In this document: piece by piece, positions 10,848-61,522 of the stretch
How the letters are laid out: the number at the start of each line of letters is the position of its first letter
Numbering within the stretch: the first letter of the stretch is position 1
Assembly (NCBI GenBank): GCA_965242695.1
Contig: CBDESU010000001.1
Span: 1,568,001 to 1,632,000 of the forward strand
Source: Cenarchaeum sp.
GTDB taxonomy: Archaea > Thermoproteota > Nitrososphaeria > Nitrososphaerales > Nitrosopumilaceae
Direction of reading: 5' to 3'
DNA length: 64,000 bases
Made by a program: the position numbers and the translations under genes
Notes under the pieces: model-generated
The model's input: only the letters and a program-made list of their open reading frames with translations
Told to the model about the DNA's origin: nothing
Database searches by the model: none

Positions 10848-11410
10848 CAGCACCCGCCCCCGCCGCCGCCGCCGCCGGCGCGCGCGCCGGCTATCCTGCC
10901 GGCCCAGTGGACGACGCGCTCCTCTTCCATCGGGCAAAGCTCGACGCCGGCCTGCTTGGCCAGGCCGCGATCCTTCTCGGGATAGTCGGCAAGGTATACG
11001 AACCGCCTGATGCCGATCGTGACGGCCATCTTTGTGCACTCCAGGCACGGGACCAGGGTCGTGTACAGGACAGCGCCCTCTGTGCCCGTCTCGATGCCGA
11101 GTATCGCGCAGTGCATTATGGCGTTGGCCTCGGCGTGGGTGCACAGGCACCTCTCGAGCTGCTCGCCCGACCTTATCTCGCCGCGCACCCGCCTCTGGCA
11201 GCGATCGCACCCGCCCTCGTGGCAGTTCGTCATGCCGGGCGGCGTGCCGTTGTAGCCGGTCGCCAGCTGGCGGTTGTCCCGCGCAATGACGGCGCCTACC
11301 TTTTGCGCAATGCAGTTTGAGCGCAGCTTTGCAAGCTCGGCCTGGAGCATAAAGTACTCGTCCCAAGTGGGCCGGTCGAACCCGCCTTCGCTGCCGCCAG
11401 CGCCCGCCAT
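10844..11410 (-). CDS. dCMP deaminase (ComEB family)
   Basis: RPTWDEYFM, ATGYNG, HAEANAI, PCLEC zinc motifs. Confidence 0.93.
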   Translation of the reverse strand: MAGAGGSEGGFDRPTWDEYFMLQAELAKLRSNCIAQKVGAVIARDNRQLATGYNGTPPGMTNCHEGGCDRCQRRVRGEIRSGEQLERCLCTHAEANAIMHCAILGIETGTEGAVLYTTLVPCLECTKMAVTIGIRRFVYLADYPEKDRGLAKQAGVELCPMEEERVVHWAGRIAGARAGGGGGGGGCC

Positions 11411-40329: not shown

Positions 40330-41577
40330 ATGGCAGAGCAGGGGGCGCCCCCCATATACCTCGACTACAACGCGACGACGCCCGTGGACCGGCGGGTAGT
40401 CGATGCGATGCTGCCGTGGATGTCGTACAGGTTTGGCAACCCGGCTAGCGCCGGCCACGCGGCCGGGCGCGAGGCGCGGCATGCCGTCGAGGAGGCGCGC
40501 GGGCAGGTGGCTGATATGGTCGGGATGAACAGGCCCGACGTGGTCTTTACGTCCGGCGCGACAGAGGCCAACAACCTTGCCGTGCGCGGCCTGTACCCCG
40601 GCAGCGGCGACGGCGTCTCCATGCACATGCTCGCCGGCGCGACCGAGCACAAGTCCGTCCTCGAGGCGGGCCGGTCGATAGAGGAAGAATACATGAGCGG
40701 CTCGCTGTGCAGCATCGTCCCGGTCCTCGGCGACGGCACGCTCGACCTCGGCGCGCTAGAGTCGGAGATGTCCAGATGGCACGGGGAGATAGACGTCGTG
40801 TCCGTAATGGCCGCCAACAGCGAGACGGGCGTGATCCACCCCGTAAAGGAGGCGGCCGAGATCGTGCACGCCCACGGCTCGATCCTGCACTGCGATGCGA
40901 CGCAGGCGGCCGGCCGCGTGCCGTTTGATGCCGGCGCGCTCGGCGCAGACATGGTGACGATCAGCGCCCATAAAATGTACGGCCCAAAGGGGTGCGGGGC
41001 CCTCGTGGCGACCAGGGAAGCCAGGCGCCTGCTCGGGCCCATGCTGCACGGCGGCGGGCACGAGGACGGCCTGCGCAGCGGCACCCTCAACGTGCCCGGA
41101 ATAGTCGGGTTCGGGGTAGCCTGTACGATAGCCGCGGACGAGGGGCTCGCCGACGCGCCGCGCCAGGAAGGGCTGCGCGACCGGTTCGAGGAGGCGCTGG
41201 CCAAAGAGGTCCCCGACGTAGAGTTCAACGGGGCCGGCGCGCCCCGCCTGCCGAACACGTCGAATGCGAGGGTGCCCGGCGCGATGGCAGAGATGATTCT
41301 CGCCAACGTGCGGCGCGTGCAGATCGCCACCGGCAGCGCCTGCACGTCGGCGGCCGTCGAGCCGTCGCACGTGCTGCTAGCGATGGGCCTCGGCAGGGAA
41401 GAGGCAGGCGAGTGCGTGAGGGTCTCGTTTGGCAGGCCGTCGACGGAGGAGGATGCGGATGCGGCGGCGCTCGACATCGCCGCCGCCGCGGGCTTTATAC
41501 GCGGGCTGGAGGCGCGCGCCGCCGGCATGGATGCGGCGGCAATAGGAGCGGCGGCACGCGCGGAGGCCGCGTCCTGA
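40330..41577 (+). CDS. Cysteine desulfurase (IscS/DndA/SspA-like)
   Basis: YLDYNATTP, FTSGATEANN, SAHKMYGPKG, GSAC; stop overlaps the next start (TGATG). Confidence 0.93.
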   Translation: MAEQGAPPIYLDYNATTPVDRRVVDAMLPWMSYRFGNPASAGHAAGREARHAVEEARGQVADMVGMNRPDVVFTSGATEANNLAVRGLYPGSGDGVSMHMLAGATEHKSVLEAGRSIEEEYMSGSLCSIVPVLGDGTLDLGALESEMSRWHGEIDVVSVMAANSETGVIHPVKEAAEIVHAHGSILHCDATQAAGRVPFDAGALGADMVTISAHKMYGPKGCGALVATREARRLLGPMLHGGGHEDGLRSGTLNVPGIVGFGVACTIAADEGLADAPRQEGLRDRFEEALAKEVPDVEFNGAGAPRLPNTSNARVPGAMAEMILANVRRVQIATGSACTSAAVEPSHVLLAMGLGREEAGECVRVSFGRPSTEEDADAAALDIAAAAGFIRGLEARAAGMDAAAIGAAARAEAAS

Positions 41578-42554
41578 TGCGCCCTGACGAGGCGGCCCCC
41601 GTCGCATCGTTCTCGCGGCACGAGACGTTCCACCTCCGGTACGGGTGGCTCAAGAAGGGGTATGATGCGATCGCAAGGGATCCGCACGCGTTCACGCGCG
41701 ACGATGCGACGGTGAGGCTCGGCGTCGGCAAGAACATGGTAAGGTCGATCCGGTTCTGGGGGCTGGCGGCAAAGGTGTACGAGGCCGACAAGAAGACAAA
41801 GACTGCAAGGCCGACGGAGATGGGCCGCGCGCTGCTCGACGATGCGGGCGGGATGGACCCGTACCTAGAGAGGCCCGACACCCTGTGGATACTCCACTGG
41901 CTCGTCTTTGCGCCCCCCTGCCTGCTGCCGGCGTGGTGGGTGCTGGTCAACGATGCGCTGGCCGGATCCGTCGTCGTGGCCACCGACGACATGAGGAGGA
42001 GGGTGCGCGATGCGGTAGAGTCGGTCGACGCGTGGAGGCGGCCGAGCCCCCGCTCGGTCGACAAGGACTTTGACGTGTTCGTCCACACGTACTCGTCGAG
42101 GAGGGGGCGCGACATGGTAGAGGACTATCTGGACTGCCCGTTTCGCAGCCTGCACGTGCTCCGGCAGGGCACGCGCGACGAGATGAGGTTTGTGCAGGGC
42201 CCAAAGCCCGGCCTCTCGCCGCTCGCCGCCGCGTTCGCATGCCTAGACTTTGCCGACAGGTCGGGGTCGGCAGGGCGCACGGCGAGCGTCCACCGGCTGG
42301 CCATGGAGGCTGGCAGTCCCGGCAGGGCCCTCAGGCTTGACGAGGCCGACATGGCCGATCTCTTGGCGGGGGCCGCCGACGAGTGCGATGCGATCGCGGT
42401 GCGCAACGTAAACGGCGCGCAGAGCCTCGCGTTCGGGGACGGGGCGGGCGCGGCCCGGGAAGAGGTGCTGCGGGCGATATACGGGCGGCGGGCGCGTAGG
42501 AAGGGCAGGAAGAGGATCGCCGCTCCGGCGACTCTGGAGGTCGAGGCCGCATGA
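41577..42554 (+). CDS. DUF4007 protein (SspB-like)
   Basis: FSRHETFHLRYGWLKKG, LGVGKNMVRSIRFW, DPYLE...TLWILHW. Confidence 0.88.
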   Translation: MRPDEAAPVASFSRHETFHLRYGWLKKGYDAIARDPHAFTRDDATVRLGVGKNMVRSIRFWGLAAKVYEADKKTKTARPTEMGRALLDDAGGMDPYLERPDTLWILHWLVFAPPCLLPAWWVLVNDALAGSVVVATDDMRRRVRDAVESVDAWRRPSPRSVDKDFDVFVHTYSSRRGRDMVEDYLDCPFRSLHVLRQGTRDEMRFVQGPKPGLSPLAAAFACLDFADRSGSAGRTASVHRLAMEAGSPGRALRLDEADMADLLAGAADECDAIAVRNVNGAQSLAFGDGAGAAREEVLRAIYGRRARRKGRKRIAAPATLEVEAA

Positions 42555-44647
42555 CCCGTGCGAGGGCCGCAGGGGCAGGCAAGAGGGGCGCCGCTCCGGC
42601 AAGGGCGGCCGCGGCCCAAGCGGCTGCCGCAAGGACGGCCGCAAAAAAGAGACACGGTGAAGCCACGCCGCTCACGAGGATCGTGCGCGTGAGGCCGCCG
42701 GCGTACGCCTCGGTCAGCATAGAGAACGACCTGCACGACAAGGGCGGCGGCGCGCTAGACGGCTACATACCCGGCGCGGGCACGCTCGACACCGTATCGC
42801 GGCTTGGCGCCGGCATGCGCGGCGGCAAGCGCGGGCATGCAATCTCGGTGACCGGCCCGTACGGGTCGGGCAAGTCCGCAATGGCCGTATTCCTAGACGC
42901 CCTGCTTGCGCCCAAAAAGTCGCGCGAGTACGCAACGGCAAAAGAGATACTGCGCGAGGCGGACTCCCGCCTTGCCGACGTGTTCGACAAGTCGAGGCTG
43001 CAGCTCGGCATACAGCGGCGCGGGATGATCCGGTGCATGGCGACGGCCAAGCGCGAGCCCGTGTCGGCGACGATACTGCGCGCGCTAGACGCCGGGGCCC
43101 GGCGGCGCTTTGGGGACTACAAGGAGTCCGACTTTGAGGGCGCATCTGCCCTGTCCCGCATGGTGCGCGGCCTGGGCCGCGGCACGGCCCCCGACGCGGC
43201 CGCCGTCGCCGAGGCGGCGCGAGGCATGTGCACGGCCGATCCGGTCATTGTCGTGATCGACGAGTTTGGCAAGAACGTAGAGTACTTTACCGACGAGAAC
43301 ACGCGCGAGGGCGACCTGTTCCTGCTGCAGGAGCTCGCCGAGATGTCGGGCGCCTCGAGGGGCGTGCGCCTGTTCGTTGTGACGATGCAGCACATGGCGT
43401 TCGAAGAGTACGCGTCGGGCGCCTCGTCGTCGCAGAGGCGCGAGTGGGCAAAGGTGCAGGGCAGGTTCGACGACATACCGTTTGCAAACTCGCCAGAGCA
43501 GGCAAGGCGGCTCGTCAGGAGCGTCCTGGGGCCGGCCGGAACGGGCGGCAAAAAGGTCGGCACGGCGCTTCGCAAGTGGTCAAGGGATCAGGCCGGCAGG
43601 GCCGCGGCCATGGGGCTCGGCGGCGACTTGGACGAGGGGCTGCTGCACTCGTGCTACCCGCTACACCCGCTCTCGCTAGAGGTGCTGCCCGAGCTGTGCT
43701 CTAGGTACGGGCAGCACGAGCGCACGCTGATCTCGTTCATGGCCGGCGGCGGCGAGCATACGGTGGCGGGCTTTGTCGACAGGGCCGCGTGGGACGGGGC
43801 GGGGCAGCCGCCGACCGTAATGCTCGACGCGCTGTACGACTACTTTGTGGCCGGCTCGGCCCTGGTCCGCTCGGCGTCGTCGTCGGGCGCATCCAGGCTC
43901 TTGGAGATAGAGACCATAATACGCGACACGCAGGGGCTGTCCGACGACGAGTCGCGCGTGCTAAAGGCCGTCGGCGTGCTGAACCTGGTAGGGAGGGCCG
44001 GCAGGCTGCGTGCCTCGCGCAGCATGGTCGCGTACGCGGCCGGCATTGCAAGGCCCGATGCGGCCCTAAAGTCGCTCGAAAAGCGGTCAATACTGACGTA
44101 CCGCCGGCACTCTGACGAGTACCGCGTGTGGCACGGCACCGATGTCGATGTGCAGATGAGCCTGGATAACGCGCGCCGCAGGCTGGTTGCAATGCCGCTT
44201 ACCGGCCTGCTAAAGGCCACGCTGCCGCTCGACCCCGTGGTGGCGGCCCGGCATGCACTGCAGACCGGCACGACCCGAATATTCGAGAGGGTGTTTGCAG
44301 GGGCGGCCGAGGTAGCATCCGTCCAGCCTGGGCCAGGGTTTGACGGGGTGATCGTGTACCTGGCCGGCGAGGAGAGTGAAGGTCAGAAGGGCGGCGACAC
44401 TCCCCTGCCTGCGGCCGGCAGTCAAGAGGGGAAGAGGCCAGCTGTCGTAATCAGGGCGGCCGATCTAGAGGCCCTGCGCGAGGCTGCCCTGGAGGTCGCA
44501 TCCGTGCGAGACGTTCGCGACAACAGCCCAGAGGTGCAGGCCGACTGGGTGGCGCGCCGCGAGATTACCGAGCGCCTAGCTTGGGCAGAGTCGGCCCTAG
44601 AGAGGGCGTTTGAGGGGGCGTACGGTACAGGGAGTATGATACTAAGC
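42551..44647 (+). CDS. SspC-like P-loop ATPase, 5' part (reads on to a spurious stop at 44887 in this orientation)
   Basis: VTGPYGSGKS, VVIDEFGK, EWAKVQGRF, YPLHP, QHERTLISF. Confidence 0.85.
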
Positions 44648-46252
44648 GTTATCATCGCGTTTTCTCCTTCTAGGCGTCACGGACAGGCGCGATCGGCGCC
44701 CGGCAGGGCGTTCGGACGGCCGTACAGGGCCGCGTGGACCTCTGCGGCCAAGGGCAGGCCGCGGGCGCCGGCAGCATGGATCGCCGCACAGCCTAGCGCC
44801 GCTTGCCCCCCGACAGCCTGCCGCTCAGCTCGGCGAGCAGGGCCTTCACGCCGTCGCCGGCAAGCCCCCTTGCCTGCAGGTCCCTGATGGCACGATCGGC
44901 GGCCCTCTTGACGTGTGGTGCCTTGTCGGGCGGCAGGGCGACGATCGCATTCTCCTCGCCCCCATCTGGCCGCGTCACGGTCACGCGGTACGCAGGATGG
45001 TCGTATGCGTCGGACACCTCTGCGAGGTGCATCGATGCCAAGCGGGAGAACCGAGCCGAGATGTCCCTCAGCTTGTTGGTAAACAGGACGCGCTGCTCGT
45101 CGCTCCACTCGGACGGTGGCATGCCCGTGAGTGTGAGGGCCACGTATTTTATCCAGTCCTCGTTGCTCTCCAGCACGTCGTTTGACACGGCAGTCAGGAA
45201 CACCTTCATCTCGCGGTCCAGCACGTGCGGGGCTACCACTGCGGCCGCCCTCGAAAGCTTTTTGCGGGTCGACATCAAGGTAGACTTCAACACATCCTTG
45301 ACAAGGCCGCCAAGCATTACGCTGAACGCCCCTGACAGCTCGGCCAGCGACTTTGCAAGGGCGGTGGCAAACTTGTATATTTTTTCTTGTCCGGGGTCGA
45401 CATGACCAGACATGGCATCATAACCGAGTGCCCGAGGCAACGACTTTAGGAGCAGTGAGTCCGGTTCGACGGCCGTCTCGACGGCTAGGCGCACGGCGAG
45501 CGCCCTCTTGCTGAGCATCCGGGTCTTTTTGATATGTGGTGGGAGTGATGCATAGACGCCCACGAGGTGGGAGACGACGTCAAGGAGTGATGCCTTTGCC
45601 GCATCTTCCGGGGGCTGGACTCCAAGCTTGCCGGCGACCTGTCGTATGGTGGCCATGGCTGCCACGCCTTGTCCAAAGTATTTTATTTCAAAATGGGCAG
45701 GATTCCTGACAAGGCGCTCTGTAATCTCTGTCGTTATGGCGCGGCAGTACGTCCCGTGCTCGTACAGTGCGATGCGGTCTCGGTGCACGAGCAGGACGGA
45801 CACTGCAAGTAGGGGCATCAGTCCGGCCTTTACGCCGTAGGGCGGTTTGGAGAGTGACTCGTACACTGCAAGCAGGGACAGACGTTTGCCGGCATCTCTT
45901 GCCATCCCGACAATCTTTTTCCATGCAGGCTTGAAGTCTGCCCGGGAGGGAGATCGCATTACATGCACAAGGCCGGGCGCGCGGTGCATTCCCGATCGCG
46001 ACAGGACGGCCTCGTAGATCGCCCTGTCGGGGCCCCACCCCTCGATGCCCAAGAGTGGTGCGTCCGCCCGCTCGACCATGCCGCCGAGGAGCCTGTACAG
46101 GGCCGTCGAGCCCTGCGGCGTCAGCGCGTTGCGGTTGATCATCTCGTTGAAGACGTGCGGCGTGTTCGTGTACCACTGGTCACAGTACTCTGAGGCGATC
46201 GAGCTGGGGGTGTCCGAGCCCTTTGTATGCCCAGTATCGCTTAATATCATAC
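44634..46252. other. Inverted segment flanked by 18-bp inverted repeats (44634-44651, 46235-46252)
   Basis: GTATGATAcTAAGCGtTA versus GTATGATAtTAAGCGaTA (16/18); both read M-I-L-S in frame with the two ATPase halves. Confidence 0.85.
44793..46250 (-). CDS. SspC-like ATPase, 3' part, inverted
   Basis: TPHVFNEMINR..L, LGIEGWGPDRAIY..VL, KPPYGVKAGL.PLL, EPD.LL...LP.ALG motifs typical of this family's C-terminal half. Confidence 0.8.
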   Translation of the reverse strand: MILSDTGHTKGSDTPSSIASEYCDQWYTNTPHVFNEMINRNALTPQGSTALYRLLGGMVERADAPLLGIEGWGPDRAIYEAVLSRSGMHRAPGLVHVMRSPSRADFKPAWKKIVGMARDAGKRLSLLAVYESLSKPPYGVKAGLMPLLAVSVLLVHRDRIALYEHGTYCRAITTEITERLVRNPAHFEIKYFGQGVAAMATIRQVAGKLGVQPPEDAAKASLLDVVSHLVGVYASLPPHIKKTRMLSKRALAVRLAVETAVEPDSLLLKSLPRALGYDAMSGHVDPGQEKIYKFATALAKSLAELSGAFSVMLGGLVKDVLKSTLMSTRKKLSRAAAVVAPHVLDREMKVFLTAVSNDVLESNEDWIKYVALTLTGMPPSEWSDEQRVLFTNKLRDISARFSRLASMHLAEVSDAYDHPAYRVTVTRPDGGEENAIVALPPDKAPHVKRAADRAIRDLQARGLAGDGVKALLAELSGRLSGGKRR

Positions 46253-46268
46253 CCGTGCGCCTCGGCCC

Positions 46269-47105
46269 GTGCGCCACGTCTGCGGCATCTCGGGCGGCAA
46301 GGACTCTAGCGCCTTGGCCGTGTACATGCGCGAGAGGGTACCCGACATGGAGTACTTTTTCTGCGACACGGGCGCCGAGCTGCCCGAGACGTACGCATAC
46401 CTTGCCAAGCTAGAGGTCGTCCTAGGCAAGCCGATCGCGCGCCTCAACTCGACGAGGGGGTTCGACCACTACTTTGAGGTGTTCAGGGGAACGCTACCCT
46501 CGCCTCAGATGAGGTGGTGCACCACGCTCCTCAAGATAAAGCCGCTGGAGGAGTGGATAGGCGACGAGGAGGTCGTCTCGTACGTGGCCATACGGGCCGA
46601 CGAGAGCAACCGCAAGGGATACATCTCGACAAAGCCGAACATACGCACAAAGTTCCCGTTCGTTGACGACGACATCGACCACGCTGGTGTGATCCGCATA
46701 CTGGAGGACTCTGGGCTTAACTTGCCCGACTACTACAAATGGAGGACGCGGTCGGGATGCTATTTTTGCTTCTTCCAGCGCAAGGCCGAGTGGGTGGGCC
46801 TGGCCGAGCACCATCCTGAGTTGTTCAAAAGGGCCGTGTCTATAGAACAAAAAATATTAAAAGATGCAGGTATAGACGGTGACGCATCATTCGAATCTAA
46901 CGCAATGAAAAATGGTAACTATACTTGGTCGCCCGGCGAAACATTGGAACAGCTTTTAAAACGCAAAGATGATATAATACGTAATCACAAAAAACGTCTT
47001 GAAAAATCTAGATCTGCACAAAAAAATCGACCGTTAATAAGCATTCTGGCAGAAAGTTTAGATAGTGAAAGTTCCGACACGGGATGCACGGTATGCCATC
47101 TATAG
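46269..47105 (+). CDS. PAPS-reductase family protein (SspD/DndC-like)
   Basis: SGGKDS, DTG.E.PETY, RWCT..LKI.P, RSGCYFCF, terminal CTVCH. Confidence 0.9.
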   Translation: MRHVCGISGGKDSSALAVYMRERVPDMEYFFCDTGAELPETYAYLAKLEVVLGKPIARLNSTRGFDHYFEVFRGTLPSPQMRWCTTLLKIKPLEEWIGDEEVVSYVAIRADESNRKGYISTKPNIRTKFPFVDDDIDHAGVIRILEDSGLNLPDYYKWRTRSGCYFCFFQRKAEWVGLAEHHPELFKRAVSIEQKILKDAGIDGDASFESNAMKNGNYTWSPGETLEQLLKRKDDIIRNHKKRLEKSRSAQKNRPLISILAESLDSESSDTGCTVCHL

Positions 47106-47330
47106 GTGATAAAAATGACAACAGGTATTAGTTATAAACTAAGCGATCTTATAAAAGAATCGATTCATGAGAAAGAAGGGCCAGACAGTATAAACGAATT
47201 GCTTGTAGACATACTTGAAAAAGAAGCTGAATGGCAATATGAAAGCCCCTATGATGCACTAGCAGAGTTTAAAAAAACATACAAGAAATTAATTCAATTG
47301 CATTGTCCATACAAGGTGGGATCAAATTGA
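47106..47330 (+). CDS. Small acidic protein (PbeB-like candidate)
   Basis: 74-aa ORF tightly packed between sspD-like gene and ATPase. Confidence 0.55.
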   Translation: MIKMTTGISYKLSDLIKESIHEKEGPDSINELLVDILEKEAEWQYESPYDALAEFKKTYKKLIQLHCPYKVGSN

Positions 47331-49504
47331 ATGGGGAGTATAGGATCGTGGAGGTTCGCCTGAATAACTACAGGCAATATTATGGTTCTGTCACGGTGAC
47401 ACTTGCGTCACAAAAAGACAGATTTGCAGCTGTGATCGGAAACAATGGCGCGGGTAAATCCAACATTCTTAATGCGATCAATTGGTGCTTTTTTCACAAA
47501 GAACCACACATGCGGCAGCTTGAAGGACTTCCAATCATCAACATCAAGCGTATCAAGGAAGCCGATGAAGAATCAAAAATTGAAATGAGTGTATCCGTAA
47601 TACTTGAGCAGGGTACGACAAAATATAACGTAACTAGAAAACTTGCGGTTGTTAAACACAAATTGGAAGTGGGTGCTGATGGCGAGTACCGAATTATTAA
47701 CCTAGAAGATGCACCATATAGTGAGCTTATGCCTGTAGGATTTGAAAAGCTTTACAATCTTTCAAGGCCAACATTTCACAGGTCTGAAAATGGCGGGACC
47801 TGGGAAGATCAAACAAAGTCACATAGATTCAGTGCAATAGTAAATCAAATATTGCCAGAATCGCTATCGAAGTTTTTCTTGTTGGATGGGGAATTTCTCG
47901 AGAAGTTTTTCGATGGACAACAAAAAATTAGCGAAGGTGTGAGGCAAATTTCACAACTTAATGTTTTGGAGGAAACATTGAATCATATAAAACGTGTAAA
48001 ATCGTCAGGTCGTGCTAATTATGATAATCAAAAAGTAAATGATCTCGAAGACAAAATCAAATTACATGAAAAATGGCTGGATTCGTTGGGCGATAACGGT
48101 GAAGAGTTAACGGATGAACTTATACCCGGTACTGATAGGGCATATCACAAAAATGGAGTGCCGAGGGAAAAAGACCTGAAAAGTGCACTAGTATACCTAG
48201 ACAGTGAGCGTAACAACATTCGTAAAAAGCTGTATGAACAAGGACAAATATCCAACGCAGATCTTCATAAGAAAAAGGCAGAGCTGGATGATAAAGTTAG
48301 CAATGTCGGTAGTCAACGATACAAAATTATAAAGCAGCAAAGAGATCTGCTGATTAAACAAAGTCCTAAAATAATGCTGGGCGAGGCCTTGAAGAATACG
48401 ATTGACATGGTGAATGTCGAAATAGAAAAAGGCAAGCTTCCAAATCGAAGTAAAATCATATTAGCTAATGATCTCCTGTCAAGAGAAACTTGCATTTGTG
48501 GAACAAGTCTTAAAACTGGAACCAGAGCGCGTGACAACGTAGAATCAATGAGGGCATCAGTCTACGACGATGTTGATCTAGACTTGGCCAATGATATTAA
48601 GTATGCAAATGAACAAGATGTAGGAAAGATGGTGGAAGTTAAGAAAATGATAGGCAAGAACACGATTGAAATCAATGACTTTGGAGACACATTACGAAAG
48701 ATTGGTGAAGAGATATTAGAGATTAAGAATCAGATAGTTGATGACTCGGATGATCAATTTCAACTGATGACACAACAGGGGCAGCGCATAGACAGGGATT
48801 ATGACAAGGTCCAAAAAGAACTAAGTGATATTGGGTTAGAGATTAAACGGCGGCAAGGAGATTTGAAATCGTGCAGGCAGGACTTGAGCGCCATAAATGT
48901 CAGTAATGAGAAAGTGGCAAGGAGATTATATGAATCAAAAGTGTTAGAACAAGTACATGACTTGCTCGAATCGCTTTGTGAAGATTTAAGCGACAGTATA
49001 AGAAAAAAAATTCAAGATAAAACAACTATGTATTTTAAAAAAATAATGTGGAAGGAGGGATTTTTCGAGCAGGTCCAAATCGACAAGGATTACAGGCTTA
49101 AGTTGCTAACGACGACGGGATTTGATGCTATCGATAGCCTAGCTGCTGGAGAGAAATTGTTTCTTGCGTTCGCATTTGTTGCGGCCCTCCGTGAAATCAC
49201 GGGCTACAGATTTCCATTAGTCATCGATAGCCCGCTTGGAAAAGTGGCAGGAACACCACGAAGGCTATTAGCCAAACAGTTGCCCGTTTTTCTTCCTAAC
49301 TCACAATTGGTTTTGTTAGTCACTAACACAGAATATTTGGTCCCACTTCCTACTAACGATGAAGACCCAAAACCTGGAAAATCGTTCAAGAGTATACTGT
49401 CTGAAAAAGTGAGCGTGTGCGAGTCCGTCATAGAGTTACACAAGGCAAACCACAGCTCTAAGGTCGTTCCGTACGACAACGGGGGGATGGATAATGACTA
49501 CTGA
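47327..49504 (+). CDS. SMC/Rad50-like ABC ATPase (DndD/PbeC-like)
   Basis: NYRQYYG, GNNGAGKS, FFLLDGE, coiled coils with CICG hook, LAAGEK, LVIDSPLG. Confidence 0.85.
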   Translation: MNGEYRIVEVRLNNYRQYYGSVTVTLASQKDRFAAVIGNNGAGKSNILNAINWCFFHKEPHMRQLEGLPIINIKRIKEADEESKIEMSVSVILEQGTTKYNVTRKLAVVKHKLEVGADGEYRIINLEDAPYSELMPVGFEKLYNLSRPTFHRSENGGTWEDQTKSHRFSAIVNQILPESLSKFFLLDGEFLEKFFDGQQKISEGVRQISQLNVLEETLNHIKRVKSSGRANYDNQKVNDLEDKIKLHEKWLDSLGDNGEELTDELIPGTDRAYHKNGVPREKDLKSALVYLDSERNNIRKKLYEQGQISNADLHKKKAELDDKVSNVGSQRYKIIKQQRDLLIKQSPKIMLGEALKNTIDMVNVEIEKGKLPNRSKIILANDLLSRETCICGTSLKTGTRARDNVESMRASVYDDVDLDLANDIKYANEQDVGKMVEVKKMIGKNTIEINDFGDTLRKIGEEILEIKNQIVDDSDDQFQLMTQQGQRIDRDYDKVQKELSDIGLEIKRRQGDLKSCRQDLSAINVSNEKVARRLYESKVLEQVHDLLESLCEDLSDSIRKKIQDKTTMYFKKIMWKEGFFEQVQIDKDYRLKLLTTTGFDAIDSLAAGEKLFLAFAFVAALREITGYRFPLVIDSPLGKVAGTPRRLLAKQLPVFLPNSQLVLLVTNTEYLVPLPTNDEDPKPGKSFKSILSEKVSVCESVIELHKANHSSKVVPYDNGGMDNDY

Positions 49505-49922: not shown

Positions 49923-50886
49923 GCATAATAGGAACATCGGCAAGCACAAGGCGTACGGCAAGATGTACAAAGTGGCATCTATTGCAGATCCAAGGCATTA
50001 CTAGACAAGTCAGAGGGATTGAACATGACACTAATGAATAATAAGTTCGAACCAAAGATGTGCTGGGATTCTGACACAGACAACATACTTGATGACTTTT
50101 ATCTTCAGGGGTTAAAAAATAGCAAGAAGTATGATCGTCTTGCAGGGTATTTTTCATCAACACTATTTGTCAGAACTGCATATGAAACGCTAGATTTTAT
50201 AAAACGTGGTGGGAGAATAAGAATTGTGACCAGTGCCACACTTTCGTATAACGATTTAGATACAATAAAAAACATAAATCACTATGCAAATGCTGTAGAC
50301 GAATCATTCTTAAACGAAATAGTAAAAAATACTAATGAAATAGAACATAAATGTAAATCATTATTTGGCTGGTTGTTGAATCAAAAGGTCGAAGGGAAGC
50401 CGCAGTTAGAAATCAAAATTGCAATGCCAAAAAGGCCTACAGGCATATTTCATCAAAAAGTTGGAATATTTACTCTTGTAGACAACAGCATAGTGACATT
50501 TTCTGGATCAGTTAATGAAACAGTCAAAGGCTGGCAGGACAATGTTGAGCAATTTAAAGTGTTCATGAGTGGAAAGGACAGAACAAACGAACATGCAATC
50601 AAAAATGACCAAGATAATTTTGAAAGGTATTGGAAAAATCAAAATTCTGGATACAAAGTTGTGAACTTACCAAAAGCAGTCACCACCCATTTGCTGTCTA
50701 TTGCCCCCAATTCGGAATCAGAGTTTAAGTCGTTAGTAGACCACTTGGAAAAGAAATTCTACAAAAAGCGTGTTAGATCATCAGGCATAGTGTTGAGAGA
50801 CTATCAAGAAAAGGCAATAGAATTATGGGCAAAAAATAATTTTCGCGGCATATTCGCAATGGCAACGGGTACTGGTAAAACATATA

Positions 50887-52339
50887 TTGTTCACGTCATA
50901 AAGATTTGACTTATTTTACCCAAACTATTTGACGCGGTCAGGGTCTGCAAACAGTGGGATGTATTTTTTGGGCGACTTCGGTACCGGTTGATCGCCGTAT
51001 TTGCGGATTATATAATTCAACGCTCCTTCTTTACCATGTCGATTTTTTCTTCGCTTTATGTTTCGCCTGTATGCATACGGACTTCTCAATAGATATTTCC
51101 AAAGGTTGAGGCGAGGGTTTAACATAGTGTTAAGGTATCTTAGTGTCTTCCGCCTCTTTTTTGTAATACTTGAAAAATATTCATCATAGAACTCGGCAAG
51201 CTTGGTTTGGCGCCAATTTGCCTCCTGTAGACTCAAGTATGACGACCCCGGTGGAAGATAAAATATGATTATCATGTTTTCCATCTTGTCAATGAAATCC
51301 TTTAGTTTCTTGGACTTGTGCCATCCTGCGTTGTCAGAGATCACCACGATTGGGCCGAATTCTTCGACCGCTTTTTTCAAAAGCTTGATGACACCATCAG
51401 TGTTGGCTGCGTCGTACATAACGTTGCAATGCCGAGCAACGCCATTTTTGTCGGGCTCGGTGGTCAGTCCCAGTGCGACACACTTGGAACCCTCTCCAAT
51501 GTAGGGCACCTTGACGGCCTCGCCCGGGGGCGACCAGTAGATCAGCTTGCCGTTCGCGTCTTGGTATACTATCATCTCGTCCTCGATCACCACTAGATAA
51601 CCCTCTTTTTTGAGCGCCAAAATCTGGGGTAGGACCACTTTGCGCCAGTAGTAGACCTCGTGCGGTTCGGGCGATCCAACGTGTGCCTTCTCTGCCTTCT
51701 TTCCGGTCAGGCCTTCCTCGTGCAGTATGCGCAGGGCCTGCCTTTTGGACATTCTTAACTTGCACAGTTTGTACATTTCAGTGATAAGCTTGCGGGGGGT
51801 AATACGACCGCCGTTTTTCTTGATATTTTTGATCGCCTTTTTGACCAGTTTGCGATCATAAACGTGCGGTCGTCCCTGCCCGCCCTTATCGTACAGCCCG
51901 TTGACCCCCTTCAAGGTGAATCTTTTCATGTAATTTCTGACCGAACCTGTGGATACGCTTAGCTCTTCCGCGGTCATTTTGCAGGCCTTTGTTTTTTTCA
52001 TTTTTGATTTTTTGATCTTTACGCGAACAGAATTAACAACTAGCATTCTTTTTAGAGCCCTTGGATCTTTCTCCACCTTGATTGCTCTTTGGAGATTTCC
52101 TAACCTCATTGCCCGCCGACGCTCAGCGGGGTCTATTATATCTAGGCCTGCGTCCAAATGCCTAGAATGAAAAATTGAGTATCAGCTTTTTAGTATAAAT
52201 GATTAAAATCTATGGAATCAATTGATATCAAATCAAGTCCTGGGTGGAGTGTATGCAACCACATCGTCTGCAATCGATCGTTAATGGTTGATGGTTGGCT
52301 TGCTTCACAATTAGTGTCAAAACTTTATGTCCTAAACAA
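50887..52339 (-). mobile_element. IS630-family element, 1453 bp
   Basis: Imperfect TIR TTGTTCACGTCATAAAGATTTGAC / TTGTTTAGGACATAAAGTTTTGAC; TA duplication at 50885-86 and 52340-41. Confidence 0.9.
50925..52157 (-). CDS. IS630 transposase
   Basis: HTH with GQGRP, EDE, DNAGWH, LPPGSSYLSLQEANW. Confidence 0.9.
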   Translation of the reverse strand: MDAGLDIIDPAERRRAMRLGNLQRAIKVEKDPRALKRMLVVNSVRVKIKKSKMKKTKACKMTAEELSVSTGSVRNYMKRFTLKGVNGLYDKGGQGRPHVYDRKLVKKAIKNIKKNGGRITPRKLITEMYKLCKLRMSKRQALRILHEEGLTGKKAEKAHVGSPEPHEVYYWRKVVLPQILALKKEGYLVVIEDEMIVYQDANGKLIYWSPPGEAVKVPYIGEGSKCVALGLTTEPDKNGVARHCNVMYDAANTDGVIKLLKKAVEEFGPIVVISDNAGWHKSKKLKDFIDKMENMIIIFYLPPGSSYLSLQEANWRQTKLAEFYDEYFSSITKKRRKTLRYLNTMLNPRLNLWKYLLRSPYAYRRNIKRRKNRHGKEGALNYIIRKYGDQPVPKSPKKYIPLFADPDRVK

Positions 52340-53816
52340 TACTGCGCTAGGAGGAATCAGCAAAGTGCTGGAAAATGAAAAACGGACAATTGTAATAATT
52401 TCATCTCCACAAAAACACATTGCTGATCAATGGAGAGAGAATATAAAATCATGGAATCAAGGTGTTAAAAAAAAGGATGCGTTGGGAGAACGAGTAGTCA
52501 TGGCCTATAGCGAAAATCCCAGATGGAAAAAAGATATGGATGAATTGGTGTATAAGTTTAACAAGAATGTAATTGGCCATGATCGATTTTTAGTCAATAG
52601 TTGTATAATATGTACAACACACAACACATTTGCGACAGATAAGTTTATTAACAGGATACTCATGATGAAGAAAAACAATGCCAATGTTTTATTAATAGCA
52701 GATGAAGTACATGGAATGGGTTCCCCCAATCGTCAGAACGGGTTGAGTATGCATTATCAATACCGGTTAGGTCTTAGTGCAACACCAATACGTCATTACG
52801 ACGAATTAGGCACAAAAAAAATCCAGGAATACTTTACAAAAACAGTCTACGAACTCCCACTTCAAACAGCGATTTCTGAAGGCTATCTGGTCCAATATAG
52901 TTACCATCCACACTATATCGAACTTACTGATGCAGAGCTAATCGAGTATAGGGATCTAACGATAAGACTCGCTAAAAAATACATGGCCAAAGCAAGGGGT
53001 GAAAAAGTTGATGAAAGTGACACGAGATTGGAAGAGATGAGATCTAACATAATTGCTACGGCCATAAATAAGTATAATCAATTTGAAAATATAATAGATG
53101 GGTATGGAAATTCTCTTACGCGGTGCTTGGTATATTGTCATCCAAAACAAATTGATACTGCAACAAAAATTTTGACTGCGAAAAATATCATAAACACAAA
53201 AATTACGTGGAAGGACCCTGCTCATGATCGAGAACGGATCATTAATGCACTGGAAAACGAACAATATCAATGTGTCACTGCGATACGTTGCCTAGACGAG
53301 GGGTACGATATACCGGCCGCAAAGTTGGCCATAATTTTAGCTAGTTCAGGAGATCCCCGCCAATATATACAACGTAGAGGAAGAGTGTTACGGCGATTTC
53401 CATGTAAGGATCACGCAGAAATACATGACATATTAGTAAAACCGTCACGAATTGTTGATCAAAATGTCGAAGTGTCAAGATACATAAAAAAATTAGTGGC
53501 GCGTGAACTACTACGTCATAAAGAATTTGCAGATGCCGCATTCAACAAAAAAGAAGCATATGAAAAGGTTTATGATACGGCACAAAATTATGAAATTGTC
53601 TTGGATGAACTTTCACCGTCGTATATAGAATCAATTTAAAGATTATTTTCATAAAGCAATATTACCCGCTCCAGATCAGATCAGATCTCCCATACAACAT
53701 TAGTACTGCCGATCGTAATGTCACATCATCTGTCGTATTACCGGTTCTGTCAATTGTACATTGAGGCCGACAGACGTTTAAAACCGTCAAGCCGTGTTCT
53801 GAAAAATTCAGAGGGG

Positions 53817-55500
53817 TCAGTCACGGTGTAACCGATCTATCTTGTTGTAGTGCATGGAGTCTCGTTCACGTGCCTCTATTACGTTAGCCTTTACATCTTC
53901 GGTCAGCTGCTCAGAGAGCGGAAGGCTGCAAGGGTCTACGGCCAAGCGGCGGCTCATGCAGTACTCGGCAAGGCAGTAGTACACGTCGCTAATCAGCGTG
54001 GGCAGCACATCCGCGTACAACGGACGCCCCGGCACGGCTTCCGACGGGCCTGCTGGGCCGCCCGGGGAAGCCGGAGGGCGTGCCACCAGAGATGCGTTCG
54101 CCGCCACCGCCCTGCCGCGCCTCCTGCACAGGCCTTGCATCCTCGGCCCCGCCGTCGACGTCGACTGCGACCTCGGACCGCCCTGCCGTGCCTCCTGCAC
54201 AGGCCTTGTATTGCCCCGATCAGCTTCTGCAGCACGGCGCGCTCGGCGCGTGCGGATGGCCGGGCCTCGCAGGCCATCGCATGGGTCGACTTGACGGCCG
54301 TCATGAGGTGGAGCGCATGATCAAGCAAAGAGCCTTCGTCGTCGTCGGCATCGTGCCATCTTGTGGGCGGGCCAAGGTCGACGAGGGCTTGATCCTCAGG
54401 GCCTACCGGCGATGCGTGCCGTCCGCCCGCCAGGTCGCGCCAAGCGCCGACAACCCGCCCCAGGCCATGCCTCAGTTCGTCAAGGCGTTCCGGCACTGGG
54501 CCGAGCCCGCACGCTTTCTCGAGCAGGTCTGGAAGGCCCACGCCCTCGAGCCCCAAGGCGGCATCTTTCACTGCCTTCGGCCACGGTGGCTAGGGCGCCC
54601 AGTGGCATCCAGTATACGGCGGCCCTCGTCGGTCAGGTCGTAGTAGTAGTGCGGTTTGTTGACGGGCCTCGAATTGAAGTCGGGGTCTGCGATGATCCAC
54701 CTTTGGCACCCCTCTGGCGCGCCGTGCAGCCTTGCGCCGCGCAACGGGTCGTACCGGCGATCGCCGCGCGACGGGCCTCCCATCCGCCGATCAGACTCTG
54801 CCTCGACCAGTGACAGGGCCGCGCCAATGCCGGCGTGCGAGCAGATCGGGCCGGTCGCGTCTAGGATCAGCATGGTGGTCCATATGTAGCCGGGCACCGT
54901 GCGGATATCGGGATCGGTCGATGCCACCGGCTCGACTGTCAGTATGTGATCGGGGCTGCGCGGCACCGGCCTCGGCGTATCCAGCCACAGCGCGGCGTCC
55001 TGTAGCGGTCGGACGGACCAGGTTTGAGGGCGTATGAAAGGTGGTCAAAGTCGGACATGGTCGTGACCTCTTCGAGCCAGGTTTGAACCTGGTCGTAGAG
55101 TCCGAGCCGGCCGAGCAGCCATCCCCTGGCCCTGAGCCGGTGCCACGGCGTGTCGGACTCCTTGGCCTCGTCGCTACCATAGTACTCTAGCGCGGCGCGG
55201 TAGCCGCCGCGCCCTACCGCATCCCGCATGTAGCCGCCTATGCGGTGGTCGTCCAGCTCGGGCCTGGCATACAGGCCATGCAGGGCCGCCGCCGGCGCGG
55301 GACGGACCGCGGGATACAGGATCTTGGCGGACACTCGGCCCTGCGGCGGATTTCTGAGGGCCTGCCGAGTGCTGCCCAGGCTGACCACATCGTATCCAGA
55401 GGGGCCCGGCATTCTGGGCGCAACATCTTCGCCGCCGCCCCACGGTACCGCCCCGCCAGGCGCCTCGGCGGCCCCCCTGTCCGACGCCACACGGTAACTT
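53817..55500 (-). pseudogene. Frameshifted paralog of the 538-aa wHTH-like protein
   Basis: Homologous segments spread over ORFs 54939-55586, 54568-54966, 53993-54571, 53817-54200. Confidence 0.75.
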
Positions 55501-55589: not shown

Positions 55590-57206
55590 TCACTTGGCGC
55601 CAGGACGGCCATCCACATCGCTGTAGAGAGGGTTGTCCTTTGTGAGCGCCTCGATTATTTCGGCCTTTTCCTCATCGGCAAACTGCTCGGAGAGCGGAAG
55701 GCGGCACGGATCCACCGCCAGGCTGCGGCTCTCGCAGTACTCGCCCAGGCAGTAGTACAGGTCGCAGATCAGCGCGGACGAGACGTCCGAGAAGAGCGGG
55801 CGCCGCGGCGCGTTTTTTCCATTCCACCCTGTACCGCCGCCCTCGAATACGGCATCGGGGCCGGCCCGGGATACGACCGCCGCCACTGCCACGGCATGCT
55901 TCCTGCACTGGCCCCGCAGCGCCCCGATCAGCGTCTCCAGTACGGCATTTTCGGCGGCGGAGGTCGGCTTGGCCTCGCATGCGATCTTGTGGGCCGGCTC
56001 GAGTACCGCCATGAGGGAGAGCGTATGATCTAGCACAGTCCCGCCGATTGCGTCCACATTGGGCAGATTTGTGGCCGCCCCCAGGTCGGCCAGCACCTGA
56101 TCCTCCGGGCTTACCGGTGCTGCATCGATTCCCTTTTCCTGGTTCTCCCATGCGCTGTGAAGCATGGCAAGCTTGTCCCTTATTTTGCCGAGATCTTCCC
56201 GCGGGCCGCCAAGCCTGCATGCGCCCTCTAGCAGGTCGGGCAGCGACATGCCCCCGAGCCCCGATGCGGCCGCCTCCACCGCCTTTGGCCACGGCGCGCC
56301 TGCGGCCTTTGCATCGCGCAGGGCCCTGCGCCCCTCGTCTGTCAGGTCGTAGTAGTAGTGGGGTCTGCTGATGAACCACGGGTCAAAGTCGATGTCGGCG
56401 ATGATCCACCTGTGGCATCCCTCCGGCGCGCCGTGCAGCCTTGCGCCGCGCAGCGGGTCGTATCGACAGCCGCCGCCTGCATGGCCGCGCATCGGCCGAT
56501 CCGCCTCTGTTCCAACCAGGAAGGCAGCAGCCCCGAGGCCTGCGTGCGAGCAGATAGGGCCGGTCGCATCAAGGATCAGCATGTTGGTCCATATGTAGTC
56601 CGGCACCGCGCCGGCGTCGGAGGCAGCCGCCGCCACCGGCTCGAGCGTCAGTATGCGATCCACGCTGCGCGGCACCGGCCTTGGCGTCTCCAGCCACATT
56701 GGCGGCGTCCTGTAGCCTGCACGCGGGCCCGAACAGGCGTCGTCCAAGAGATGGTCAAATTGGTCTAATGGTGAAACGTCTTCAAGCCAGTCTTTCATCT
56801 GATCACAGAGTCCAAGCCTCCCGAGCAGCCAGCCCACGGCCCTGAGCCGGCGTCGCTCCGTATGGGCCGCCTTGGCCTCTTCGCTGCCATAGTACTCTAG
56901 CGCGGCGCGGTAGCCGCCGCGCTCTATCGCATCCCGCATGTAGCCGCCAGTCGACTCGCTGTCCAGTTCGGGCCTAGTGTGCAGTGCGAGCTGTCCCACC
57001 AGTGTCGCCGACCGGGCCGAGTGGCGCGGCGCCGCGAGCGAAGCCAGACTCTGCATCTCGCCACCAACAGCCAGTGGAGTGCCTGCCGTAGTGCCAGCGA
57101 CAGGACTGGCGGTAGTGGCGGCCCCGGGCGCCGTGCCCTCGCCGCGGCCCCATGCGGCTACCACGGTCGCTGGCATGTCGACTGGCGCCTCGCAGCGCTT
57201 TCCCAT
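55590..57206 (-). CDS. Hypothetical protein with divergent YwgA-like winged-helix domain
   Basis: LILDATGPI.S...L.AAAFLV, YDP...HG.P, YYYDLTDEGR; TATA-like TTTTATA about 22 nt upstream. Confidence 0.65.
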   Translation of the reverse strand: MGKRCEAPVDMPATVVAAWGRGEGTAPGAATTASPVAGTTAGTPLAVGGEMQSLASLAAPRHSARSATLVGQLALHTRPELDSESTGGYMRDAIERGGYRAALEYYGSEEAKAAHTERRRLRAVGWLLGRLGLCDQMKDWLEDVSPLDQFDHLLDDACSGPRAGYRTPPMWLETPRPVPRSVDRILTLEPVAAAASDAGAVPDYIWTNMLILDATGPICSHAGLGAAAFLVGTEADRPMRGHAGGGCRYDPLRGARLHGAPEGCHRWIIADIDFDPWFISRPHYYYDLTDEGRRALRDAKAAGAPWPKAVEAAASGLGGMSLPDLLEGACRLGGPREDLGKIRDKLAMLHSAWENQEKGIDAAPVSPEDQVLADLGAATNLPNVDAIGGTVLDHTLSLMAVLEPAHKIACEAKPTSAAENAVLETLIGALRGQCRKHAVAVAAVVSRAGPDAVFEGGGTGWNGKNAPRRPLFSDVSSALICDLYYCLGEYCESRSLAVDPCRLPLSEQFADEEKAEIIEALTKDNPLYSDVDGRPGAK

Positions 57207-57783: not shown

Positions 57784-59345
57784 TAGGGGTTCTACTAAAG
57801 TTGACAAGAATTGACCAGGTGTCAAGATCCCTTCACCCCTGTGGTGGTATAGCAGGGACGACAGGGTAGGGCATGGGGCGAAAGGGATCGATTCCAGTGG
57901 GCAAGGGCTTCATGCCTGGCACGAGCGCCCACAAGCTCAAGCGCCTTGCCAACAAGGAGATGGACGCGCTGACGGCCAAGAGGTACATGGCCTCGTACCA
58001 CCGCAAGAAGGGCAGGTCGTTCAACGAGATAGCCGGGATGGTCCTTGCATCGTACGACGCGGTCAGGGACTGGCTGGTGAAGATGCACAAGGGGGGCCTG
58101 AAGGCGGCCCCGCGGGGCAAGAGCCCCGGCAGGCGCCGATCAATTCCGCTCGAGATCCGCTGGGAGTTGATCATGGACGTCTTCATGGGGCCGCAGGCGG
58201 CCGGCTACAAGGCCAACGTGTGGACGTTCAAACTCCTGCACGACCATCTTGAGAAAAAGTACAAGGTGAAGATAGCATACTCGACGGCCGCAAAGAACTT
58301 CAAGGAGATGGGCATACGGCTCAAGGTGCCCCGCCCCGCACACCCAAAGGCGGCGAGCCTCGAGGAGCGGCTCGCCTTCCAGGCGGAGGCGCGCGCCAGG
58401 ATCAAGGAGGCCGCCGCGGCCGGCTACCATACGGTCTTCATCGACGAGGGCCATGCGCAGGGCTACAAGAACGGGCGCGAGACGGCGGGGTGAGGGGGGT
58501 CGAGATCGTGCGCACGTCGAGCGTCGGGCGCGCACGCCTGAGCTTCTTCGTAGCCGTCGGCTACGGGTGGGTCTTCGTCATGGAGTGCCCCGGCCGGGCC
58601 AACAGCGAGGCGTACATGAGGTTCCTTGACAGGGTCAGCGCCCTAGTCGGCAAGATTCAGACCATAGACGACAACGCCGGATACCACACCTCGGACAGGT
58701 CCAGTGACCACATCCGGGACAACGCGGACCGCCTGAGGCGCATACCCACGCTTCCGTACACGCCCAACGACAACGTCGCCGAGCCGCAGATCCGCGGCAT
58801 AAAGACCGCCATGTCCAACGTAGGGCTCGACAGCGTCGGGGCCATAAGCGGCGAGCTCGGGTGGTGCTTTGAGAGCGACCTAGTCGTCCCGGTCGAGTTC
58901 TACGACTATGCGACTACGGTCGACGCGCCGCAGATCAGCCCCCGCAAGGCGGCGGGGATCAAGAAAAGGCTCGGGCCGGGAGAGCACTTTGTGTACGTGC
59001 AGAGGAGAATGCCGGAAGAGGAGATCACCCTGCCGACCATCGAAGAGATTCAAGCGAAGGAGGACAAGATACTCCCTCCAGAAAAGCGCACAGAGTTACC
59101 CCCTGTGCTGGCCAATTCGAACATTCCTGCCAACTTTCTTGCGAGGCTTCCCCAGATATTGCTTGAGGAATAGAGTGGCATGCCCCGCTGCGATAAATGT
59201 TGCACTTGTGCCGCGCTGCGGAATAACAATTTACGATACAATTGTTTTGTGTAACTGTTTTGTGTAACTGTTTTCTGTGACTTTTTTTCGACCGTAATTG
59301 CATGCAATCTTCAATACGTTTTCGTGAACTCAGATAGAACCCCTA
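57784..59345 (+). mobile_element. IS630-family element, 1562 bp
   Basis: TIR starting TAGGGGTTCTA at both ends; TA duplication 57782-83 and 59346-47. Confidence 0.9.
57873..59173 (+). CDS. IS630 transposase in two overlapping frames (57873-58493, 58490-59173)
   Basis: HTH, PGRR, KVPRPAH, FIDE in ORF A; DNAGYH, LPYTPNDNVAE in ORF B. Confidence 0.8.
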
Positions 59346-61205: not shown

Positions 61206-61522
61206 GGCGCCTTTCCGCCTACCGCCTTGCCAATCCTGGCGCTCGGCGCCTCGTGTCGATCACCCACGCGGCAAGGTCGTATGGATCCTATATAAGCCGT
61301 ACGCCGGCACAGATCGCAGGCTGGGCGCATGCCCGGCTCGAAGACGCCGTGGCTCGAATCGGCCAACGGGGCATCCCACCCGCAGCGCGAGTCAAGTGCC
61401 CCAAGTCGACGACAGACACTGCAAGCGATCTGCCCGGCGATGTGCATTCAACGGATGCCCGGCTTGATGGGGTCAAGATAGGAGCGGTGGCAGTGCCACG
61501 CCCTCGCCCGGTCCCACCCAGC

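Follow-up and report, generated by a model that had tools for sequence, protein, structure and literature searches.

Phase variation by DNA inversion is textbook knowledge for bacterial pathogens and gut commensals, and to our knowledge it has barely been documented in archaea. DNA phosphorothioation is known to be partial, only a fraction of the consensus sites being occupied, and with the tyrosine recombinase RecV one enzyme serves several dispersed switches. Among the described systems, the closest by analogy to the locus treated here is HvsR of Mycoplasma pulmonis, where one tyrosine recombinase acts on the vsa surface-antigen locus as well as on the hsd restriction-modification loci, inverting both (PMC2268961, citing Sitaraman et al., 2002). 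RecV flips switches in Clostridioides difficile (PMC7446863, PMC9286219), and gene-altering programmed inversions can be found in bacterial BREX PglX, DISARM and Type I hsdS genes, in a survey that excluded archaea and whose main text holds no mention of phosphorothioation (Milman et al., 2023, PMC9881135). The PhaVa survey reports 12 putative archaeal invertons from 42 euryarchaeal and crenarchaeal datasets, none of which, in the portions of the preprint available to us, comes from ammonia-oxidising archaea or from a phosphorothioation system (Chanin et al., bioRxiv 10.1101/2023.03.11.532203). No published link of phosphorothioation with inversion, phase variation or invertons was found in full-text searches of the literature, which covered main texts. 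The present analysis concerns sspC, the ATPase gene of an sspABCD phosphorothioation cluster in Cenarchaeum sp. (genome G000, GCA_965242695.1; 3.89 Mb in two contigs, C1 and C2), located in a stretch of 64,000 nucleotides, hereafter the window (contig CBDESU010000001.1, G000:C1:1568001-1632000). In the assembly this gene is broken by the inversion of its 3' part between two short sites, very probably as one state of a selected site-specific inversion switch. The elements of the switch are as follows, in window coordinates.

42551-44633, forward strand: 5' part of sspC, encoding the N-terminal ATPase part, 694 codons up to the site (PADLOC SspC positions 3-635)
44634-44655, unstranded: left site, with outer arm GTATGATAC, core TAAGCG (44643-44648) and inner arm TTATCAT
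44649-46237, unstranded: segment that inverts, bounded by the two cores (found in either orientation in Logan contigs of the sequencing runs X1, X2, X4 and X5)
44656-44792, reverse strand: non-coding spacer, found in the ON form downstream of the sspC stop codon and before the right site (no reading frame kept)
44793-46250, reverse strand: inverted 3' part of sspC, 485 codons from MILS plus the stop codon (PADLOC SspC positions 655-1101)
46231-46252, unstranded: right site, reverse complement GTATGATAT, with core TAAGCG (46238-46243) and ATACTGG

In the assembled orientation the 5' part of sspC reads on into an 83-codon tail with a stop at 44887, and this tail shows no conservation except as the antisense of coding DNA. 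The two open reading frames share a single PADLOC SspC model (PDLC02781, 1104 positions): residues 54-693 of P0001 (42551-44887, forward strand) correspond to positions 3-635, with an expect value (E) of 5e-187, and residues 23-461 of P0002 (44793-46277, reverse strand) to positions 655-1101 (E 3e-104), the break in model coordinates coinciding exactly with the sites. When the invertible segment, 1589 bp comprising the last 481 sspC codons, some 40% of the gene, and a 138-nt trailer, is flipped in silico with exchange in the core, a frame of exactly 1180 residues is obtained, whose stop lies 176 nt ahead of the sspD start. The flipped product is colinear with the intact 1171-residue SspC of a congener, G002, over 1149 aligned columns at 65% identity, and its junction falls in a variable, poorly conserved Gly/Arg-rich linker that has four extra residues in this lineage. 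No second or alternative copy of the flipped coding part was found, P0002 having a single match across G000. The initial annotation had placed the 3' codons of the gene on the opposite strand between AT-rich 18-bp inverted repeats, and had predicted that flipping would yield one frame of about 1180 residues, restore the A-B-C-D colinearity of the cluster and align with homologs; the split of the PADLOC model between the two strands, the in-silico frame, the gene order sspA-sspB-sspC-sspD and the match to G002 bear this out, as does the assembled gene, contiguous only after the flip, for the proposal that the genome was caught in the OFF state. The term intragenic, which had been applied to the switch, fits in part: one site lies inside the gene, but the other, in the ON form, is found 138 nt downstream of the stop codon, and because only one site is then intragenic the switch is a partial intergenic inverton in current usage.

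The inverted repeat arms (44634-44651 and 46235-46252) are 18 nt long and match at 16 of 18 positions (89% complementary), a length that is unremarkable, 65 inverted pairs being present in the same 3-kb repeat scan. The 16-mer ATGATAYTAAGCGWTA has two matches in the window against 0.03 expected, a number reached by none of 100 shuffles, and the 18-mer with up to two mismatches occurs only at these two places in the 3.89-Mb genome. With 33% guanine plus cytosine (GC), the sspC site stands in a genome of 67-68% GC. Several details that had been read from the letters of the window were found as described: both sites encode M-I-L-S in frame, the hexamer TAAGCG is identical in both, the two mismatches between them (44642/46244 and 44649/46237) flank this core, and the left site is a dyad, its inner arm matching the outer arm at six of seven positions. 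Regarding the right site, it is a good 7-6-7 dyad in the congener G004 (6/7), but a poor one in G000 (3/7).

Evidence that the segment moves comes from Logan contigs of four public runs (X1, X2, X4 and X5, of which X4 belongs to a different study and carries a different organism label than the other three) aligned to positions 43900-47000. Junctions of both forms can be found in them. Loose contig ends at 44634 continue as the reverse complement of 46253-46267 (15 nt; X1 and X2), and those at 46252 as the reverse complement of 44619-44633 (15 nt; X1, X4 and X5); both 15-mer overhangs are unique in the genome, and the flipped molecules therefore bear the same organism's own flanks. Run X4 has a contig of 497 nt (depth 5) that links the reverse complement of 46238-46710 to 44649-44672, one of 810 nt (depth 7.1) that passes, with one other letter, from the interior into the left flank in reverse complement, and one of 54 nt (depth 4.1) that crosses the reference left junction. 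X5 likewise has flipped and reference junctions, here with a variant right flank that points to another related strain carrying this switch.

The same contigs locate the exchange. Contigs end at 44648 (44646 in X2) and at 46243 (X1), and start at 44643 (X1, X2 and X4) and at 46238 (X1 and X2; in X4 the match of contig 20 ends there). The hybrid junctions contain at most one other letter, and every left flank retains its own C at 44642, followed by T or A at 44649. As the breaks fall at the mismatches flanking TAAGCG, the assembly graph branches there and the exchange lies inside the core; strand exchange is thus reciprocal and confined to the 6-bp core TAAGCG. An inversion with two orientations and strand exchange across a 6-bp core had both been put forward in the initial annotation, which had named a single orientation in the reads as the outcome speaking against a switch; the contigs show both junction types, with breakpoints at the core edges. 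As a separate observation, low-depth contigs of X1 (21.8) and X2 (7.4) from a relative of about 92% similarity, at 46100/46267 of the window, carry 50 nt of the conserved NEMINRNAL-coding stretch, on the opposite strand, joined straight to the sspD start. This odd junction may stem from a chimeric contig or from a differently arranged locus in a co-occurring strain.

Taken as a mechanism, a programmed, conservative site-specific inversion would flip the 1589-bp segment between two sites of about 20 bp, each with the core TAAGCG (6 bp) between a GTATGATAY arm and a second, weaker one. In the ON orientation, sspC is a single gene of 1180 codons in an sspABCD operon, and the full-length SspC ATPase, with SspA, SspB and SspD, would install phosphorothioate. 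In the OFF orientation, which is the assembled one, the C-terminal part is antisense; only a truncated ATPase with an 83-residue nonsense tail would be made, and modification would stop.

Regarding the enzyme, the window contains neither a tyrosine (PF00589) nor a serine (PF00239) recombinase gene, as had been stated at the outset, although the wider statement that no recombinase is present does not hold for the IS630-type DDE transposase genes described below. The proposal of a recombinase acting in trans thus stands, the single PF00589 match of the genome lying elsewhere and PF00239 having none. This match is P0004, a frame of 526 residues at G000:C1:2155933-2157513, about 540 kb from sspC, which has a PF00589 score of 28.8 bits (cut-off 27.1), or 30.5 bits when the whole genome is searched. 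Its residues R293, K329, H412, R415, H438 and Y444 are invariant across 26 homologs, and we take them, from the order of the motif, to be the catalytic R-K-H-R-H/W-Y set. The AlphaFold model of P0004 has a mean predicted local distance difference test (pLDDT) score of 79.5, and Foldseek retrieves only tyrosine recombinases from the PDB (34 at E<=0.001), headed by XerA (E 6e-7, 12-15% identity) and followed by lambda Int, XerH, Tn1549 Int and Cre among the top matches, with modest target-normalised template modelling (TM) scores of about 0.5; the family profile of P0004 has no match among PDB sequences. XerA itself, which had been the suggested candidate, does not stand: no ortholog was found in G000, where NF040815 reaches at best 19.2 bits against a cut-off of 220 (4 of 14 control genomes pass), and P0004, whose predicted fold is nearest to XerA, is the likelier enzyme. 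A search for serine recombinases (PF00239) gave no match among four candidates in G000, which is 96% complete, and no SSV-type integrase was found in this genome.

The link between P0004 and the sspC sites emerged when the genome was scanned for AT-rich inverted repeats and then searched with the arm by itself. The arm GTATGATAYTA occurs seven times in the genome, at the two sspC sites and in five listings, representing four distinct places, of AGTATGATAC-TAGTAA, against about 0.2 matches expected by chance on a composition estimate. These TAGTAA sites, hereafter B-sites, share the arm GTATGATAC with the sspC sites and differ in the core, and it is because the cores differ between the two families that the first motif scans around P0004 had come back empty.

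G000:C1:2157706-2210357 and G004:C2:1089126-1130767, reverse/forward pairs: putative shufflon locus with four AGTATGATAC-TAGTAA sites (loci L036, L046, L048, L050, L052 and L053)

At this locus, the B-sites precede large paralogous genes (1626 codons, for example), standing 10 nt ahead of the ATG; the Asp/Thr/Gly-rich products have a signal-like N-terminus and belong to no Pfam family. The genes are paired convergently and share long stretches of homology in inverted orientation (1437 nt at 94%), and the distance between the two sites of a pair is 10.4 and 13.3 kb. The sole tyrosine recombinase gene is adjacent: one B-site is found about 190 nt upstream of P0004, in divergent orientation, and the layout is the same in G004. 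The gene-side flank of the B-sites is identical over at least 45 nt in all copies of both species, whereas the other flank differs right after TAGTAA; the flanks of the sspC sites diverge at the corresponding position, directly after TAAGCG. The ends of the two contigs add to this picture. The end of C1 and the start of C2 are 100% identical over 12,526 nt, an overlap which stops at the last base of a B-site; past it, C2 runs on into an AT-rich flank that is unique and has an identical counterpart in G004, and C1 into 2179 nt that match the partner B-site's flank in reverse complement (99.95%). The assembly therefore holds a 13.3-kb segment in both orientations. With these features the TAGTAA locus looks like a surface-protein shufflon, in which the AT-rich flank that the two species have in identical form resembles a single expression site. 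At the opposite ends of the contigs, the last 28.7 kb of C2 overlap the first 28.7 kb of C1 at 96.5% identity, with long tandem repeats, and the two end overlaps together suggest one circular chromosome whose assembly was broken at variable regions.

G000 and G004 have P0004 (in G004 as an ortholog of 80% identity), the B-sites and the sspC sites together, and the congeners G001, G002 and G003 have none of the three. Our reading is that one recombinase would serve two site classes having a common binding arm and different cores, and that the different cores would keep the sspC and TAGTAA systems from recombining with each other. Because it adjoins a second set of active inversion sites with a shared arm and another core, P0004 is probably the sspC invertase, acting in trans; it would bind the GTATGATAY arms and invert the segment. 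The four PF01548 matches of the genome, together with the distance of P0004 from sspC, leave some room for a real switch operated by a different enzyme, namely one of the IS110-family (DEDD, Piv-like) proteins or an unrecognised recombinase. This is unlikely, given that a genome-wide 18-mer scan with up to four mismatches gives no site-like sequence near the IS110 copies, that the layout of arm, 6-bp core and arm suits tyrosine recombinases, that the serine recombinase family was not found in G000, and that the shared arm stands beside P0004 in two species whose orthologs co-occur with the sites.

The C-terminal half of SspC is matched in 9 of 61 related genomes. Of the congeners G001-G004, G004 (77-80% protein identity to G000) has the same split gene arrangement, with identical 16-mers at both boundaries and the same mismatch pattern, although the spacer beside the left site is only 43-58% identical between the two genomes against 78% overall; in the comparison of the G004 locus with the window the blastn matches were used, tblastx giving GC-rich noise. 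Among 301 family genomes the 16-mer is present in two, G000 and G004, once per strand in each, and the control pattern in none. In a collection of 5.8 billion proteins, all seven clusters that are 75-100% identical to the C-terminal half are separate frames of 485-512 residues; six begin with MIL(S/R), and P0127 has MILS internally after an N-terminal extension of 26 residues. The dN/dS ratio (nonsynonymous to synonymous substitution rates) between G000 and G004 is 0.24 for the N-terminal part (dS 0.42) and 0.20 for the C-terminal part (dS 0.67), and neither half contains stops or frameshifts. Such ratios indicate that both halves are under purifying selection and that the inverted half is no decaying pseudogene. 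The MILS motif is found at the junction in none of the 120 listed full-length relatives, all of which are single chains and one of which has the motif at its own N-terminus. The site is best taken as a lineage-specific acquisition in a variable linker, which by these comparisons has been kept in at least seven lineages.

Other genomes add side observations. In G002 (L016, G002:C1:404000-423000), sspA and sspB accompany the intact sspC of 1171 residues; no sspD match was found in 19 kb around sspC, and no PF00589 match in the whole genome. A 4.3-Mb family member, G017 (L015, G017:C1:203000-222000; 9721-11088, reverse strand), has a C-terminal half of 41% identity beside an sspA-like gene. Its frame of 511 residues was considered as a second split sspC and rejected: it has the C-terminal half only, no N-terminal half was found with P0001, and no sites are present. 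Scans of JGI metagenome contigs with a protein pattern and a right-junction DNA pattern gave no match, and a scan of genome contigs gave one distant bacterial SspC only, records close to G000 being possibly excluded from both.

The split could also be a stable arrangement, either tolerated or giving two functional polypeptides, with the flips arising as off-target products of the surface-protein shufflon recombinase. The assembly of seven out of seven close lineages in the split form, with no close full-length form among the listed matches, would agree with this, as would the strong arm that the sspC sites share with the TAGTAA sites and the start ATG of the C-terminal half inside the site. 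We nevertheless regard it as improbable: the sites are identical and in the same frame in two species in spite of the divergent spacer, the site is retained in seven lineages, the listed full-length relatives are single chains lacking MILS at the junction, both halves are under purifying selection, no AT-rich promoter-like stretch other than the site itself lies upstream of the C-terminal half, and in X4 the flipped junctions have depths of 5 and 7.1 against 4.1 for the reference. A one-off mutational inversion leaving a dead gene, or an assembly error, for which it can be said that the assembly has the broken form only and that short inverted repeats can mislead assemblers, is scarcely credible when reference junctions occur in runs of two studies and the same arrangement in the G004 assembly and seven lineages, when flipped and reference junctions coexist, and when both halves are free of stops and frameshifts with a dN/dS of about 0.2.

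Several points weigh against an ON/OFF switch of sspC driven by P0004 and have to be set beside the evidence for it. The ON form is never the consensus, the seven close lineages all being assembled OFF, and among the best 120 of 172 matches no full-length relative exceeds 64% identity, which is that of the closest. The sites have weak second arms, and in G000 the right site matches the dyad at three of seven positions. Orientation was read from k-mer-built Logan contigs, not from raw reads, and ratios and rare forms in them are unreliable; X1-X3 and X5 come from one study, which may include the source sample of the genome. X2 shows only one of the two flipped junctions, and X1 and X2 give no ON:OFF ratio, the binned depths of X1 not summing and some junction contigs being unlisted. 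As for the enzyme, the four IS110-family genes (PF01548) in G000 are alternative invertase candidates, 16-mer scans with up to five mismatches around P0004 gave nothing convincing, and the link of P0004 to the sites consists of a shared arm of 11-12 nt, adjacency, and co-occurrence in two of five genomes that are related and non-independent.

A selected switch of sspC remains well ahead of these objections in our judgement, and its phenotype would on balance be an ON/OFF alternation of phosphorothioation, OFF being the majority state in natural populations. We favour a bet-hedging switch biased to OFF, with a minority of modified cells, since the consensus is OFF in every case and selection nevertheless preserves an intact gene.

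The cluster sspA-sspB-sspC-sspD sits downstream of carB and carA, which are on the opposite strand. Its other members and the genes that follow it are listed below.

40330-41577, forward strand: sspA, cysteine desulfurase (PADLOC SspA E 2.8e-121; Pfam Aminotran_5 E 8.9e-63)
41607-42554, forward strand, start approximate, listed reading frame from 40992: sspB, DUF4007 (PADLOC SspB, Pfam DUF4007)
46269-47105, forward strand: sspD, PAPS-reductase-like (PADLOC SspD model positions 1-276 of 277, E 2e-109)
47303-49504, forward strand: PbeC/DndD-like SMC-type ATPase, of a putative phosphorothioate-dependent effector module (PADLOC PbeC E 3e-87)
50019-53639, forward strand: pbeA-like PLD-helicase gene, split by an IS630-type element (PbeA model matches on both sides)
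50925-52157, reverse strand: IS630-type element with a DDE_3 transposase, inside the pbeA-like gene (DDE_3 match)

All four ssp genes are matched by PADLOC, sspC being contiguous only after the flip. The listed frame of sspB (40992-42554) matches PADLOC SspB at residues 206-497 (E 3.8e-85) and Pfam DUF4007 (E 8.8e-77). The start of sspD is 17 nt away from the right site; the ATG inside the dyad was considered as its start and rejected, since it is not in frame and the SspD model begins with the GTG at 46269. Upstream of sspD, the sole AT-rich stretch is the outer part of the right site (CTTAATATCAT, window 46238-46269), about 26 nt before this GTG; speculatively, it might act in either orientation as a TATA-like element for a leaderless sspD transcript. 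Downstream, the PbeA model (672 positions) is divided between the frames 50019-50909 (positions 8-283) and 52212-53639 (positions 284-671), so that pbeA, a putative phosphorothioate-dependent effector gene, is broken by an insertion sequence in G000. In G004 no Pbe genes lie beside sspD. With pbeA broken in one genome and no adjacent Pbe genes in the other, the advantage of the ON state may be other than classical restriction. Further along the window, a second IS630-like element (57873-59173) has its helix-turn-helix and DDE_3 frames separate and is probably frameshifted. A multi-copy family of proteins of 540-600 residues is found at 55590-57206 and 59642-61447, both on the reverse strand, and also at about 54182-55268; it has no Pfam, PADLOC or Atlas match (P0242 being the ESM Atlas query), and in G000 as in G004 copies with some 70% DNA identity follow the ssp locus; they also occur elsewhere on C2.

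A full-length archaeal 16S rRNA (1450 bits) and an archaeal amoA (E 2e-118) in G000 identify the host as an ammonia-oxidising archaeon; genomes in its family are mostly of 1-2 Mb. Sponge metagenomes contain small parts of the region, with shares of 0.11-0.19, and sponge-associated relatives are described as having a high GC content (64.8%) and as enriched in transposases, restriction-modification genes and putative phosphorothioation genes (PMC6790972).

The widest reading of these data, which we put forward tentatively and hold somewhat less probable than its opposite, is that of an archaeal master invertase: P0004 would run both an expression-site shufflon of four huge surface-protein genes and, in trans, the sspC switch, producing mosaic populations of mostly unmodified cells. 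This would be a heritable, reversible bet-hedging of epigenome and defence in at least seven lineages, and the first phase-variable phosphorothioation system. If the switch is real, a genetic ON/OFF control within the modification machinery would be a new source of phosphorothioate heterogeneity and, together with the surface-protein shufflon, a testable mechanism of population variation for uncultivated sponge symbionts. The compact pair of sites of about 20 bp and the candidate archaeal recombinase are amenable to a plasmid assay.

With regard to the known systems, the arrangement resembles HvsR in that a tyrosine recombinase gene adjoins a multigene locus for surface proteins, the sites being placed at the 5' gene ends, and that a second class of sites is found in a modification or defence locus elsewhere, which would require dual site specificity of the candidate P0004. 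It differs in its archaeal host, its distantly related candidate enzyme and its outcome of a whole versus a broken gene, and in its target, the SspC ATPase of a phosphorothioation system in place of the hsdS specificity cassettes. With RecV it would share a tyrosine recombinase acting in trans on several switches with short inverted repeats to give ON/OFF phase variation, although RecV flips mostly small regulatory segments upstream of genes and the segment here is 1.6 kb of coding DNA. As in the systems of Milman et al. (2023), one repeat lies inside a defence or modification gene, population heterogeneity is expected, and the neighbourhood includes an ATPase family that is BrxC-like. Those systems, however, swap cassettes of specificity subunits and usually have an adjacent recombinase, whereas sspC, whose product is a BrxC-like ATPase, has no second cassette and a distant candidate enzyme. 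The partial intergenic and intragenic invertons of Chanin et al. likewise have one boundary in coding sequence and truncate or recode a gene upon inversion. Xer/dif offers a parallel in its tyrosine recombinase chemistry, here that of a candidate, in the 6-bp central region between inverted arms and in the XerA structures that best match the fold of the P0004 model; unlike it, G000 has no XerA ortholog, two inverted sites 1.6 kb apart take the place of a single dif, and the product is an inversion, not a resolution. The class of mechanism is therefore familiar, and what is new is the target system, the logic of a whole versus a broken gene, the host lineage and the candidate trans-acting archaeal recombinase.

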